A DNA stretch of 64,000 nucleotides, from NCBI RefSeq assembly GCF_003790525.1, contig NZ_CP033635.1. The stretch is one strand, 5' to 3'. The notes beneath the pieces were generated by a model. The model ran no database searches. It saw only the letters and a list, made by a program, of their open reading frames with translations, and had not been told where the DNA came from. Each line of letters opens with the position of its first letter. Position 1 is the stretch's first letter. Shown in pieces: positions 14,891-55,990 of the stretch. Origin of the DNA: Escherichia coli. GTDB taxonomy: Bacteria; Pseudomonadota; Gammaproteobacteria; Enterobacterales; Enterobacteriaceae. The position numbers and the translations under genes were made by a program.

Positions 14891-14967
14891 TGGCGCGCCC
14901 TGCAGGATTCGAACCTGCGGCCCACGACTTAGAAGGTCGTTGCTCTATCCAACTGAGCTAAGGGCGC
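14891..14967 (-). tRNA. argU: tRNA-Arg, anticodon UCU (argU)
   Basis: Reverse complement reads GCGCCCTTAGCTCAGTTGGATAGAGCAACGACCTTCTAAGTCGTGGGCCGCAGGTTCGAATCCTGCAGGGCGCGCCA: cloverleaf with anticodon loop CUUCUAA and 3' CCA. Confidence 0.93.
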
Positions 14968-28184: not shown

Positions 28185-28372
28185 TGCCGCATGCGGCGTG
28201 AACGCCTTATCCGGCCTACCGTTCCAACACCGACTGTAGGCCTGATAAGATGCGCCAGCATCGCATCAGGCATGGTGTGCCGATTGCCGGATGCGGCGTG
28301 AACGCCTTATCCGGCCTACCGTTCCGACACCGCCTGTAGACCTGATAAGACGCGCCAGCATCGCATCAGGCT
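28185..28372. repeat. REP/BIME cluster (two tandem roughly 100-bp units of paired REP palindromes)
   Basis: GCCGGATGCGGCGTGAACGCCTTATCCGGCCTAC and its inverted partner GTAGGCCTGATAAGACGCGCCAGCATCGCATCAGGC appear twice in tandem between convergent purK and ybcF. Confidence 0.85.
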
Positions 28373-36472: not shown

Positions 36473-36513
36473 GTCATACCACTCGCCTGATTATTTTTAG
36501 CTATGTTGGATTT

Positions 36514-36541
36514 TGCCACGGTTTATTCCGTGGCTTTTTTT
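36514..36541 (+). terminator. Rho-independent terminator after allDCE
   Basis: GCCACGG-TTTATTC-CGTGGC stem-loop followed by TTTTTTT. Confidence 0.75.
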
Positions 36542-36556
36542 GCGGTAAATTCAGGT

Positions 36557-37747: not shown

Positions 37748-38019
37748 TATCAATCCTTTTTCAACAAATTATTCGATGCGTTCCCACGGAATAAGATTAT
37801 CCATAAGAACAGCCAGTAAAATTCCGACCAGTAAGCCGTTACTGAGCAGAGGACGAAGCGTTAATGGAAGGTCTTGCAGATACACAGGCGGTAATGCCAT
37901 TAAAAATATGCCGACAAATAACGGCAATGCGAGTCGATAAATATTGCGAGCGGTAAACGTTATTTGCTGGCTAAACACCAGCGCGGAAAAGAGTAAAGGC
38001 AGATGGTAATGACTCCAAC

Positions 38020-38523
38020 TTACTGATAGTGTTTTATGTTCAGATAATGCCCGATGACCTTGTCATGCAGCTCCACCGATTTTGAGAACGACAGTGACTT
38101 CCGTCCCAGCCTTGCCAGATGTTGTCTCAGATTCAGGTTATGCCGCTCAATTCGCTGAGTGTAACGCTTGCTGATTACGTGCAGCTTTCCCTTCAGGCGG
38201 GATTCATACAGCGGCCAGCCATCCGTCATCCATACCACGACCTCAAAGGCCGACAGCAGGCTTAGAAGACGCTCCAGTGTGGCCAGAGTGCGTTCACCGA
38301 ATACGTGCGCAACAACCGTCTTCCGGAGCCTGTCATACGCGTAAAACAGCCAGCGCTGGCGCGATTTAGCCCCGACGTATCCCCACTGTTCGTCCATTTC
38401 CGCGCAGACGATGACGTCACTGCCCGGCTGTATGCGCGAGGTTACCGACTGCGGCCTGAGTTTTTTAAATGGCGGAAAATCGTGTTGAGGCCAACGCCCA
38501 TAATGCGGGCGGTTGCCCGGCAT
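38020..38523 (-). CDS. insB: InsB, IS1 transposase catalytic ORF (expressed by -1 frameshift as InsAB')
   Basis: 167-aa [54 protein letters not shown]. Confidence 0.95.
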
Positions 38524-38717
38524 CCAACGCCATTCATGGCCATATCAATGATTTTCTGGTGCGTACCGGGTTGAGAAGCGGTGTAAGTGAACTGCAGTTG
38601 CCATGTTTTACGGCAGTGAGAGCAGAGATAGCGCTGATGTCCGGCGGTGCTTTTGCCGTTACGCACCACCCCGTCAGTAGCTGAACAGGAGGGACAGCTG
38701 ATAGAAACAGAAGCCAC
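38442..38717 (-). CDS. insA: InsA, IS1 repressor/transposase N-terminal protein
   Basis: 91-aa [43 protein letters not shown] (zinc-finger plus HTH). Confidence 0.95.
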
Positions 38718-39902
38718 TGGAGCACCTCAAAAACACCATCATACACTAAATCAGTAAGTTGGCAGCATCACCAAGGCAGATAAGAAACCAACATGACCGC
38801 GCTACTCACCGGTAAAGGGATACTGCAAAACAGTCGTGTGAGTGCCGGAACCAGTGCCACCAGCAGGCAAATAACGCTGCCATAAATAAACGATCGTCGC
38901 GTGTAATCGCCAGTCTGGGTTAATAAACCAATGGATGAAACAAACGGTGAAAATGGAATTACCGCCAGCGGCACGGTTATCAGCGTCATAAATCCGGTCG
39001 CCACAAAGCTGCGACGATAACGCGTATTCCCCGCGCCCTGTTGCGGATAAAAAACATCCGTGCCACGAATCGCACCGTAGGTATTGCTGATATTTACCAG
39101 ACCTGTAATCACCGCCGTCAGAATAATCCCCGGCGACAAAGCACCGCCACTGCCGAGCGGGAACCACTGCCAGTGCAACTCACCGGAGAGCGAATGCGAA
39201 GAAGGAAAGCAAAAGTACCACAACAACCAGCCGGTTATCGTACCGACCAGCAGGCCATAACGGGCAAAACGTTGCGGCAGGAAGATAATCATCGCCAGTA
39301 CCAGGCACATCACCGCCACCGAGAGCGCGAACGGCGGTAACTGAATTTTAAAATTCGGGTCGGCTATGCCAAACGGCAGCCCGAGCATACCTTTGAAAAA
39401 GATAGTGGTCAGCTGCGCGCCCAGCATCAACATAAACAAGACCATCACCGACGGCGTAAATAACCGCGCCAGACGATGACCTAATCCGCTAAAACCAATC
39501 AACATCGTCAGCACGCCAGAGAGCGCAATTCCCACCGCCAGGCTGGTAGCGATATCGTTGATCGGTGTCCCGCGCGATGCTTCGCCAAGGGTGATAGTCA
39601 GGATGGTTCCCCACCACAGGCCACCCGGCCCTTCCATAATAGCGCGACGATGACCGCAGAACGCCTGAGCGAAGCAGGCCAGTGCGGTAGCAAGAAAAGC
39701 ATATTGCGTGAGCGTAAGCAGGCTACTTTGCGGCAACTGAAAAGCAGAAAGTAGCGTAGGAGGAACCACAACCGTGTTGCAAAAAATAAAGAAAAACCAC
39801 TGAAATCCTGATAACAGGCTTTCGCGGCCCACTGCAAAATTGAACATAAACACACCTTAACCGGAGAATGCCCGCCACAAGGACGGGCATTGCAGGGCCA
39901 GA

Positions 39903-44715: not shown

Positions 44716-46497
44716 TTATTCATAGTGCATGAAACAGGTTTCAGTCGGTGCGTCCGCTGCGTTATCGGCGATATCTTCAAATTCCATGACGTTATCCAGT
44801 TCACTGCCCATCGAAATATTGGTCACACGCTCGAGAATAACTTCCACGACTACAGGTACCCGATATTGCGCTATTAAGACTTTCGCCTGTTCAAAGGCTG
44901 GTGCAATATCTTCCGGTTTGAAAACGCGAATTGCTTTACAACCTAAACCTTCCGCTACTTTTACGTGGTCGACGCCATAACCGTTCACTTCGCTGGAGTT
45001 AATATTTTCGAAAGCGAGCTGTACGCAGTAATCCATATCAAACGCGCGCTGCGACTGGCGAATCAGCCCCAGATAAGCGTTGTTCACCAGTACATGGATG
45101 TACGGAATATTGAACTGTGCGCCAACGGCTAATTCTTCAATCAGGAACTGGAAGTCGAAGTCACCGGAAATCGCCACCACATTGCGCTCTGGATCAGCGG
45201 CACACACGCCCAGCGCCGCCGGAATGGTCCAGCCCAACGGGCCTGCCTGCCCACAGTTGATCCAGTGGCGGTCTTTAAAGACATGCAGCATTTGTGCCGC
45301 AGCGATTTGTGACAGACCAATGGTGGTGACATAACAAACATCGCGACCAAAGGCTTTGTTCATCTCTTCATACACGCGCTGCGGTTTCACCGGCACATTG
45401 TCGAAGTGGGTTTTGCGCAGCAAAGTGCGTTTGCGCTGCTGGCAGTCGGCGACCCATTCTTTACGACACGGCAGACGACCCGCTTTTTGCATCTCCTGCG
45501 CCACTTCAACCAGCAGCGTCAGCGCTGCTTTAGCATCAGAGACAATGCCGAGATCCGGACACAGCACGCGGCCAATTTGCGTCGGCTCAATATCGATATG
45601 AACGATTTTGCGCCCTTCGGTGTATTTCTCTACCGAACCGGTATGACGGTTAGCAAAACGGTTACCGATACCAAACACCATGTCGGACGCCAGCAGCGTT
45701 GCGTTACCGTAACGATGCGCGGTTTGCAGACCCACCATCCCGGCCATCAGTTCATGATCGTCGGGAATACAGCCCCAGCCCATCAGCGTTGGGATCACCG
45801 GAACGCTGGTCAGTTCAGCAAACTGTTGTAACAGTGCAGCAGCGTCAGCATTGATTACCCCGCCCCCGGCAACAATCACCGGACGTTCGGCCTGAATTAA
45901 CATTTCTACAGCTTTTTCGATCTGCATACGGCTGGCAGCAGGTTTGTAGACCGGCAGCGGTTCGTACATGTCAGGATCAAACTCGATTTCCGCAACCTGA
46001 ACGTCGAACGGTAAATCCACCAGTACCGGACCCGGGCGACCAGAACGCATCAGGTGAAACGCCTGTTGCAGCACACGAGGCACCAGCGCCGCTTCACGAA
46101 CTGTAACCGCCATTTTGCTGACCGGTTTAGCAATTGCTTCAATATCAACGGCCTGGAAATCTTCTTTATGCAGACGGGCGCGCGGAACCTGGCCGGTAAT
46201 ACACAGAATAGGAATGGAATCAGCAGAAGCAGAATAGAGCGCGGTGATCATGTCCGTGCCCGCAGGACCGGAAGTCCCCAGACATACGCCGATATTCCCT
46301 GCCGTTGCGCGGGTATAACCTTCCGCCATGTGCGAAGCACCTTCCACATGACGCGCCAGAATGTGACGAATACCGCCGTGCTTACGCATCGCTGAGTAGA
46401 ACGGATTGATTGCAGCTCCCGGAACGCCGAAGGCGGTGATGATACCTTCTTTCTCCAGCACATACATTGCCGCGTCAACGGCTCTCATTTTTGCCAT
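44716..46497 (-). CDS. gcl: Gcl, glyoxylate carboligase (ThDP-dependent)
   Basis: 593-aa product from [34 protein letters not shown]. Confidence 0.92.
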
Positions 46498-46517
46498 TTT
46501 ATTCCTACCTCTATTAA

Positions 46518-46534
46518 TTGGAAAAATTTTCCAA
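46518..46534. promoter_or_regulatory. AllR operator at the gcl promoter
   Basis: Perfect palindrome TTGGAAAAATTTTCCAA immediately upstream of gcl. Confidence 0.8.
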
Positions 46535-46541
46535 CTTTCAA

Positions 46542-46566
46542 ATTTTGTCAAAAAAACCCGCTCCGC
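46542..46566 (-). terminator. Rho-independent terminator after allR
   Basis: CCCGCTC-CGCA-GAGCGGG stem-loop with an adjacent A7 tract on the plus strand (a T-run on the minus-strand transcript). Confidence 0.7.
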
Positions 46567-46586
46567 AGAGCGGGATGCGACAGACA

Positions 46587-47402
46587 CTATGGATGTGCTT
46601 TCAGTCCCAACGCCGTGCTGATATCGCGGGCGGTGTCTCTGACCAGCTCACCCTGACTGACAAAACGATCTTCTGTCAGTCTTGATGAAGGCCCGGAGAT
46701 GGAGATAGCGGCAACAACACTACCTACATCATCGTAAATTGCTGAAGCTATGCAATTCAGGCCAACAACATGCTCTTCTTTATCTACGGTATAGCCCAGT
46801 TCACGCGCTTGTTCCAGGTCCTTCAGCAAGGTGGGCATATCCACAAGCGTCGTTGGCGTAAACTGCTGCAAACCGGTTTGCAGAATGATGCTCATCAGCT
46901 CCTCTTCCGCCAGCGGATAAAGCAGCGCCTTGCCCGCACCGGAAGCATGCAGCGGCAGACGACTGCCCAGCGGCGCACACATCCTGACCATCGATTTACA
47001 CTCTAACTGACCAATTAATACCGCTTCATTGCCGTTACGGATCGCGACATTGACCGTTTCGCCGGAAAGTAACATCAGGCGGCGCATAAACGGCCCGGCG
47101 ACGGAGAGGACATCGCGGTTATGGATGTACGCTGCACCGACGTTAAAGACACCTAATCCTATATGCCACCAGCCTAACTGACTGTCCTGATAGACAAAAT
47201 CCGCTGCCTGTAAAACCTTCAGCAAGCGAAAGGTCGTGGAGAGCGGCAAATCCAGATTGAGAGAAATATCGCTAACCGATGAACTTCCCCCACTTTTTTC
47301 CAGATATTGCAGAATCGCAATTCCCCGCTCTAACGCCTGTGCGCCCTTCTGTGCCACAGGCTCCGCCTGTCCTGGCCTGCCGCGCCGTCTAACTTCCGTC
47401 AT
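46587..47402 (-). CDS. allR: AllR, IclR-family repressor of the allantoin regulon
   Basis: 271-aa ORF with N-terminal IclR HTH ([38 protein letters not shown]). Confidence 0.9.
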
Positions 47403-47479
47403 ACCTACGTTAACTCCGACCTACAAGTGAGCATAAACAATGAACAATTCGTTTATCTTATGCAAGTCGGTTGCAGGCG

Positions 47480-47962
47480 TCACGCAAAACAGAGTTCCTG
47501 TTCAGGAATACTTTCAACATCACAGTTGTCACTGCCGCCGCGATCGATGGTCAAGAAATCGGTGACGCGCTGCCAGGCGAAAAGTGGATGATGCCAGACG
47601 TTACGATGGTAATTCACCCCCTGTTCGCCGTTGGTAATAAACGCCCGCAGAGTTGACAGGTCTGGTTTGTCGTCACCTAACGCCACGACCACCACAAACA
47701 CTTCCCCTTTCATCGGGATAAAGGCCTGAGTACCCAGCGGATGACGTTCGAGTTCGTGAAGGGTCAGCGGCAGATTCGCCGGTTGCGCGCGGTTAATGCT
47801 GATAAGCGTACGGTCTTGCTCAAGAATCTCAACCAGCGCCAAATCGTGGTAACGCTCCACCAGTCCATTGTTAATATGGAAAAAATCCCGTTGCTGCGTT
47901 TCGATTACGTCGCCATAAGCACTAAAGGCTTCCTGACTTAACGGTAATACCTGAAGTTTCAT
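47480..47962 (-). CDS. allA: AllA, ureidoglycolate lyase
   Basis: 160-aa [36 protein letters not shown]. Confidence 0.9.
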
Positions 47963-48067
47963 CTTTTTGTCCTTGTAACATAATTCCGTTCAACCACCGC
48001 CGACCGGTCAGCTTGGTTTCAATAACAGGCAATCTAAAACCTTAAGAGAACAACATCAACACAAAAG

Positions 48068-48084
48068 TTGGAATATTTTTCCAA
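48068..48084. promoter_or_regulatory. AllR operator in the allA / allS divergent promoter region
   Basis: Palindrome TTGGAATATTTTTCCAA, same half-sites as the gcl site. Confidence 0.75.
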
Positions 48085-48191
48085 AACTAGATTTAGTCCA
48101 CAAATTGAACAGGGTTATCATGTAAAAATACTGATAAATCAGAGGATAAGAAAATCACGCAACTTGCGGATTTAAAAGGGGATACCTGAAG

Positions 48192-49118
48192 ATGTTCGAT
48201 CCAGAAACCTTGCGGACTTTCATTGCGGTTGCTGAAACAGGTAGTTTTTCAAAAGCGGCAGAACGATTATGTAAAACCACGGCGACGATCAGTTATCGCA
48301 TTAAACTTCTGGAAGAGAATACCGGAGTAGCGCTGTTTTTCCGTACGACTCGTAGCGTAACGTTGACAGCGGCTGGCGAGCATCTACTTTCCCAGGCCAG
48401 AGACTGGCTGAGCTGGCTGGAAAGTATGCCAAGCGAGCTGCAACAGGTGAATGATGGCGTGGAACGCCAGGTGAATATTGTCATCAACAACCTGCTCTAT
48501 AACCCCCAGGCCGTTGCCCAGTTGCTGGCGTGGCTGAATGAGCGTTACCCCTTTACCCAGTTTCACATCTCCCGACAAATCTATATGGGCGTCTGGGACT
48601 CGCTATTGTACGAAGGTTTTTCGCTGGCTATCGGCGTCACGGGAACTGAGGCGCTGGCAAATACCTTTAGTCTTGATCCCTTAGGATCGGTGCAATGGCG
48701 CTTTGTCATGGCGGCGGATCATCCGCTGGCGAACGTTGAAGAGCCGCTAACAGAAGCGCAGTTGCGGCGCTTTCCGGCGGTCAATATTGAAGACAGCGCC
48801 CGCACACTAACCAAACGCGTCGCCTGGCGATTGCCGGGGCAAAAAGAGATTATTGTTCCCGATATGGAAACGAAAATCGCCGCCCATCTGGCGGGCGTTG
48901 GCATTGGTTTTTTGCCAAAATCACTTTGCCAGTCAATGATCGATAATCAACAACTGGTCAGCCGGGTAATCCCAACGATGCGCCCTCCTTCACCATTGAG
49001 TCTGGCATGGCGCAAATTTGGCAGCGGCAAAGCGATAGAAGATATTGTGACCTTGTTTACCCAGCGCAGGCCGGAAATCAGCGGATTTTTAGAAATTTTC
49101 GGCAACCCACGCAGTTAA
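48192..49118 (+). CDS. allS: AllS, LysR-family activator of allDCE
   Basis: 308-aa [45 protein letters not shown] (LysR HTH). Confidence 0.9.
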
Positions 49119-55824: not shown

Positions 55825-55990
55825 TTGAAATGCGATGTGCTGGTTTGTAGGCCTGATAAGACGCGCCAGCGTCGCATCAGGCATCCGCGCATAGCCGCCG
55901 GATGCGGCGTGAACGCCTTATCCGGCCTACCAAACCGTGCTAATTCAATACATTGCAGGTGCCATGTAGGTCTGATAAGACGCATCAGGC
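55825..55990. repeat. REP/BIME cluster
   Basis: Several copies of the GTAGGCCTGATAAGACGC...GCATCAGGC and GCCGGATGCGGCGTGAACGCCTTATCCGGCCTAC palindromes between convergent ybbN and fetB. Confidence 0.85.

Follow-up and report, generated by a model that had tools for sequence, protein, structure and literature searches.

The two near-identical palindromes that lie at positions 46518-46534 and 48068-48084 of the window, a 64,000-nucleotide stretch of Escherichia coli DNA, are almost certainly operators of AllR, a repressor of the IclR family whose gene lies between them. This assignment is supported by the published AllR motif, by the match to the corresponding K-12 sites and by conservation, and it upholds the earlier note, which had called the palindromes AllR operators and whose coordinates for both were confirmed by direct reading of the window sequence.

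The palindromes, their genes and their repressor

The operator at gcl (46518..46534) reads TTGGAAAAATTTTCCAA on the plus strand and TTGGAAAATTTTTCCAA in the sense of gcl, and is located between the stop codon of allR (46587) and the ATG of gcl (46497). The second operator (48068..48084) lies in the divergent allS/allA control region, between the ATG of allA (47962) and that of allS (48192), and reads TTGGAATATTTTTCCAA on the plus strand and TTGGAAAAATATTCCAA in the sense of allA. The sequences of the two sites show 2 differences in 17 positions when both are read on one strand, and 1 in 17 when one of them is read on the opposite strand. According to the RefSeq annotation, gcl (glyoxylate carboligase; 44716..46497, minus strand) is the first gene of the gcl-hyi-glxR-allW-allB-(ybbY)-glxK operon. 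It is preceded by allR (46587..47402, minus strand), the product of which binds the palindromes, and by allA (ureidoglycolate lyase; 47480..47962, minus strand), while allS (48192..49118, plus strand) encodes the LysR-type activator of allD and allF; allA and allS are both repressed via the operator at 48068 (PMC12535856). The RefSeq annotation of AllA and AllS was confirmed by NCBIfam equivalog models. On this gene map the palindromes do frame the allR-allA unit, one in the allS/allA region and the other in the gap between allR and gcl, as had been claimed.

The window AllR scores 619 bits against the NCBIfam equivalog NF007548, which has a cut-off of 406, matches PDB entry 1TF1 with E = 2e-110 and is identical to K-12 AllR at 271/271 residues, so that experiments performed in K-12 transfer directly. 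The 2.1 kb around the sites are 100% identical to E. coli SMS-3-5, and this 2.1-kb query is present in 5401/5426 complete E. coli genomes. An 81-bp megablast query of the gcl operator region found a match in 3279 of the 5426 E. coli genomes, a figure that most likely reflects the requirement for a 28-base word in A/T-rich DNA with SNPs and that we do not read as site loss, because the 2.1-kb query was found in 5401 genomes. Elsewhere in the gcl operon, between allB and glxK, an IS1 element (about 38020-38717, minus strand) splits ybbY, a uracil/xanthine-type transporter gene (about 37769-39847), both halves of which are RefSeq pseudogenes inside this AllR-controlled operon; the insertion might have a polar effect on glxK. 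At another place in the window, argU (tRNA-Arg(TCT), 14891-14967, minus strand) is directly followed by envY, with no prophage there in this strain; in K-12, the DLP12 prophage is located at argU.

The pattern TTGGAA-N5-TTCCAA has exactly two matches in the 64-kb window and none in 100 dinucleotide-preserving shuffles. Allowing up to two mismatches gave no site beyond these two in the window, and at three mismatches the 24 matches found in the window, against 29.9 expected, correspond to background. Two such three-mismatch matches near the operators (46491-46507 and 47973-47989) were rejected as AllR sites, being not conserved as sites. The scan that the earlier note had proposed for additional sites, for example upstream of allD or fdrA, found none in the window, and the absence of a site at allD and fdrA agrees with published work in which allD and allF are controlled by AllS and not directly by AllR (PMC12535856).

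For AllR, the motif KTTGGAAWAWTWTTCCAAC has been published (Rintoul 2002; Table 1 of PMC8222616); the minus strand of the allS/allA site (tTTGGAAAAATATTCCAAc) matches it at 19/19 positions and that of the gcl site (gTTGGAAAATTTTTCCAAt) at 18/19. The K-12 "AllR recognition site" given in a 2026 paper is AAATCTAGTTTTGGAAAAATATTCCAACTTTTGTATT (PMC13300388), and the reverse complement of window positions 48058-48094 agrees with it at 36/37 bases. The 17-mer at 48068-48084 is identical to the K-12 allS/allA site, and the sole difference between the gcl site and its K-12 counterpart is the central base of the palindrome. A full-text literature search with the exact 17-mer gave no match. According to reviews of the system, AllR binds at the promoter of gcl and in the control region between allS and allA; its inducer is glyoxylate and its corepressor allantoin (PMC12535856; PMC11323563). 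The two targets agree with those named in the earlier note, and deletion of allR alone derepresses the genes (PMC12535856). Binding and its release by glyoxylate were reported for K-12 from gel shifts and footprints (Rintoul 2002, Walker 2006, Hasegawa 2008; summarised in PMC12535856 and PMC11323563), and in vivo ChIP-seq work characterised AllR as a factor of high specificity that has one strong site or a few (PMC12059191). Compared with the AllR boxes of the K-12 allantoin regulon at the gcl promoter and in allS-allA (Rintoul 2002, Hasegawa 2008), the window sites have the same genes, positions and regulator and show essentially no difference; they represent the same element in an SMS-3-5-like lineage instead of K-12.

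Conservation across enterobacteria and competing readings

A scan for AllR with one genome per species yielded 22 enterobacterial loci from nine genera, namely Escherichia, Citrobacter, Klebsiella, Raoultella, Superficieibacter, Buttiauxella, Izhakiella, Atlantibacter and Providencia, the last with 66% AllR identity. All 22 orthologous loci have the gcl palindrome, at 12-27 nt before the gcl ATG and with 0-1 mismatch, and the allS/allA palindrome, again with 0-1 mismatch, occurs in each of the 21 other loci whose sequence includes the region. Over 12 half-site positions in 44 sites, 524 of 528 cells carry the consensus base, and mean column conservation is 0.99 in the half-sites versus 0.71 in the other allR-gcl columns and 0.66 in the other allS-allA columns. 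An E. coli genome that ranks among the most divergent, at 89% identity over the operator region, has likewise kept both sites intact. The 5-nt spacer is itself part of the conserved motif, with A, A and T at positions 7, 8 and 10 in 41/44 orthologous sites, and the motif is better written TTGGAAAAWTWTTCCAA; hence the earlier description of identical half-sites around a 5-nt spacer holds for the length of the spacer and fails where the spacer was treated as free sequence. As a separate observation, record CACSKA010000001.1, labelled 'Chryseobacterium sp. 18061', carries an enterobacterial allS-allA-allR-gcl locus near-identical to that of Citrobacter sp. 18056, and is probably mislabelled or contaminated.

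The arrangement of the two sites could also be read as functional beyond mere gene order, with one AllR tetramer (a dimer of dimers) holding both palindromes and looping out the intervening 1.55 kb with allA and allR, in the way that the lac, gal and deo repressors loop DNA between operators. We consider such a loop unlikely. AllR reportedly must be a tetramer to function, and Walker 2006 is reported to have found tetramerisation mutants inactive in vivo; a loop, if true, would explain this need for a tetramer despite the single dimer-sized palindrome at each promoter. Also in its favour, each control region contains one good palindrome with no conserved second site within 60 bp (across the 22 loci, no offset in that range averages below 5.4 mismatches out of 12), both sites are retained together in every one of the 21 loci that span them, PDB entry 1TF1 holds four chains, and members of the IclR family bind either as dimers or as tetramers (PMC8222616). 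However, the spacing of 1541-1636 bp just tracks the lengths of allA and allR, and the helical phase between the operators is evenly scattered, with no phase conserved. In addition, published gel shifts work on each region alone (PMC12535856, PMC11323563), two separate promoters that each need the repressor fully explain the pairing, and the literature searched makes no mention of looping. The more specific proposal of a 1.55-kb repression loop, bridged by one AllR tetramer and enclosing the repressor's own gene together with the promoter of the small RNA AllZ, is one that we regard as distinctly improbable. In TtgV-type operators, two adjacent dimer sites lie within about 40 bp. TtgV belongs to the same family, shares the dimer-of-dimers architecture and is found, as entry 2XRO, among the PDB relatives of AllR, and the IclR family often has tandem sites spaced by 19-21 nt (PMC8222616). 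The AllR operators are unlike this type in that no conserved second palindrome adjoins either of them.

A further reading is that IclR, a paralogous repressor, binds the sites in addition to AllR or in its place, which would imply cross-talk between the glyoxylate shunt and glyoxylate assimilation. The IclR box of aceBAK/iclR, TGGAAATNATTTCCA, resembles the AllR box as an A/T-rich palindrome on GGAA/TTCC cores that is used by a paralogous glyoxylate-responsive repressor, and when this box (PMC8222616) is compared with the site cores, 12 of its 14 specified positions agree at gcl and 11 of 14 at allS/allA. AllR moreover scores 248 bits against the IclR model, and both proteins sense glyoxylate (PMC11323563). 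Yet neither site conforms to TGGAAATNATTTCCA, and the disagreements concern positions conserved among AllR sites, which makes cross-binding unlikely: at both sites the innermost half-site bases depart from the IclR box, and across the genera they are kept as AA..T, and the outer T/A of TTGGAA/TTCCAA is invariant although it lies outside the IclR box. The AllR box extends one conserved T/A outward on each side, and it serves a different regulon. The literature also gives the sites to AllR, the deletion of which suffices for derepression (PMC12535856), and we therefore regard a role of IclR here as very unlikely. Finally, that the palindromes arose by chance or are generic promoter elements such as UP elements, with no specific partner, has virtually no chance of being correct, for although both lie in A+T-rich intergenic DNA, where short A/T-rich repeats are common, zero exact matches were expected from the shuffles and two were seen, and the reading is refuted by half-sites that contain G/C and stay near-invariant across nine genera while the surrounding bases drift, together with published AllR binding (PMC12535856, PMC13300388, PMC8222616).

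Proposed promoter geometry, the allR terminator and AllZ

The earlier note had also noticed a terminator hairpin of allR near the gcl site, and the terminator scan, folding and conservation all agree with it. The stem-loop, CCCGCTC-TGCG-GAGCGGG, occupies 46557..46574 on the minus strand, has 7 pairs, of which 6 are G-C, and a free energy of -14.8 kcal/mol, and is directly followed by a T7 tract at 46550..46556 on the same strand. A hairpin with a T-run is found at the same place in 22/22 loci, and in Buttiauxella, Atlantibacter and Providencia its stem has another sequence. AllZ, a small RNA of K-12 (b4831) that comes from the 3' end of allR and its UTR, has its counterpart at 46550..46784 on the minus strand, with 231/235 bases identical to K-12. 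In the K-12 RefSeq record AllZ extends over 533629-533863, and its 3' end, 533863, corresponds to window position 46550, the last T of the run, which identifies the hairpin after allR as a working terminator. The allR terminator is also the 3' module of AllZ, a small RNA derived from the allR 3'UTR; by ending at the hairpin and U-tract after allR, AllZ resembles other 3'UTR-derived, Hfq-associated small RNAs that end at the intrinsic terminator of their host gene. AllZ is not known to be connected with binding by AllR. The small RNA was detected by RIL-seq, in which it paired with grcA and ftsZ, and was visible on northern blots; it may be transcribed from a promoter of its own within allR (PMC8175672). 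Among other RNA elements in the window, Rfam matched the enterobacterial small RNA STnc480 at 36479-36545 on the minus strand, in the allE-glxK gap (81.9 bits against a gathering score of 72), and the REP-type element naRNA4 (CssrE) twice, at 28239-28316 and 55850-55927, both on the minus strand.

The gcl operator ends 20 nt upstream of the gcl ATG, and these 20 nt hold the Shine-Dalgarno sequence GAGG, so that the gcl promoter must overlap or precede the operator; the order of terminator, operator and promoter proposed in the earlier note is therefore refuted. As a candidate -35 element on the minus strand we propose the perfect hexamer TTGACA at 46546..46551, two T of which also belong to the terminator T-run; in 21/22 loci the same place, 10-11 nt before the palindrome, is taken by a TTGnnn or TTAGAC hexamer. 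A weaker candidate for the -10 element, AATTTT (46523..46528, minus strand), lies 17 nt after TTGACA and inside the operator, and matches the consensus at 3 of 6 positions; because of this weak -10, the TTGACA/AATTTT pair falls below the threshold of the consensus scan. With this pair, transcription would be predicted to start near 46516, giving a short leader that carries the ribosome-binding site. The sole promoter-like match of the consensus scan, TTTCCA-17-TAAAAT (46524..46496), was dismissed as a promoter of gcl, since its -10 overlaps the start codon and its transcript would lack the conserved ribosome-binding site. Probably, then, the gcl operator covers the -10 region of a promoter whose -35 TTGACA is fused to the terminator T-run, a geometry read from sequence.

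For allA, a candidate promoter is predicted at 48031..48059 on the minus strand, with -35 TTGATG (48059..48054), a 17-nt spacer and -10 TAGATT (48036..48031). In the alignment of the 22 loci each hexamer stands out as a conserved block; the pair falls below the threshold of the consensus scan. Relative to this predicted promoter the operator would be centred at about -52, upstream of the -35 element, which is not the classic position for occlusion. For allS, two options seem possible from the hexamers present, namely a -35 TTTCCA (48078-48083) that would overlap the operator, combined with CAAATT (48101-48106), or an extended -10 of the form TG-T-AAAAAT (48121-48129). Further conserved blocks of the allS-allA region, unlike the AllR box, are found on the plus strand at 48097-48101 (CCACA) and at 48120-48141 (ATGTAAAAATACTGATAAATCA), the latter with a TTATCA-N11-TGATAA-like symmetry; they may represent the allS core promoter or the site of another regulator.

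Proposed repression and what the sites mean

Taken together with the known response to glyoxylate, the layout suggests how AllR might act at its two operators. When glyoxylate is absent, AllR would sit on each 17-bp inverted repeat with one helix-turn-helix per TTGGAA half-site. At gcl, where the operator lies between the -35-like TTGACA and the ribosome-binding site, bound AllR would most likely block RNA polymerase at -10/+1, and could also stop any polymerase that reads through the allR terminator. Between allS and allA, one operator flanked by two back-to-back promoters would repress both of them, and the repression of allS would in turn keep the AllS-activated allD and allF operons off indirectly. 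Glyoxylate releases AllR from the DNA, and allantoin reportedly makes repression stronger. In this scheme, the precise promoter hexamers and the geometry of occlusion are predictions.

AllR operators are already known, and the finding is correct but ordinary: the operators were defined experimentally in K-12 more than 20 years ago and are catalogued in regulatory databases, so that their recognition here adds little. The sequence-only reading was accurate, and the sites are useful as clean positive controls for motif-finding rather than as a discovery. For the enterobacteria, the layout of two operators, the terminator and its probable overlap with the gcl -35 element are conserved across nine genera.
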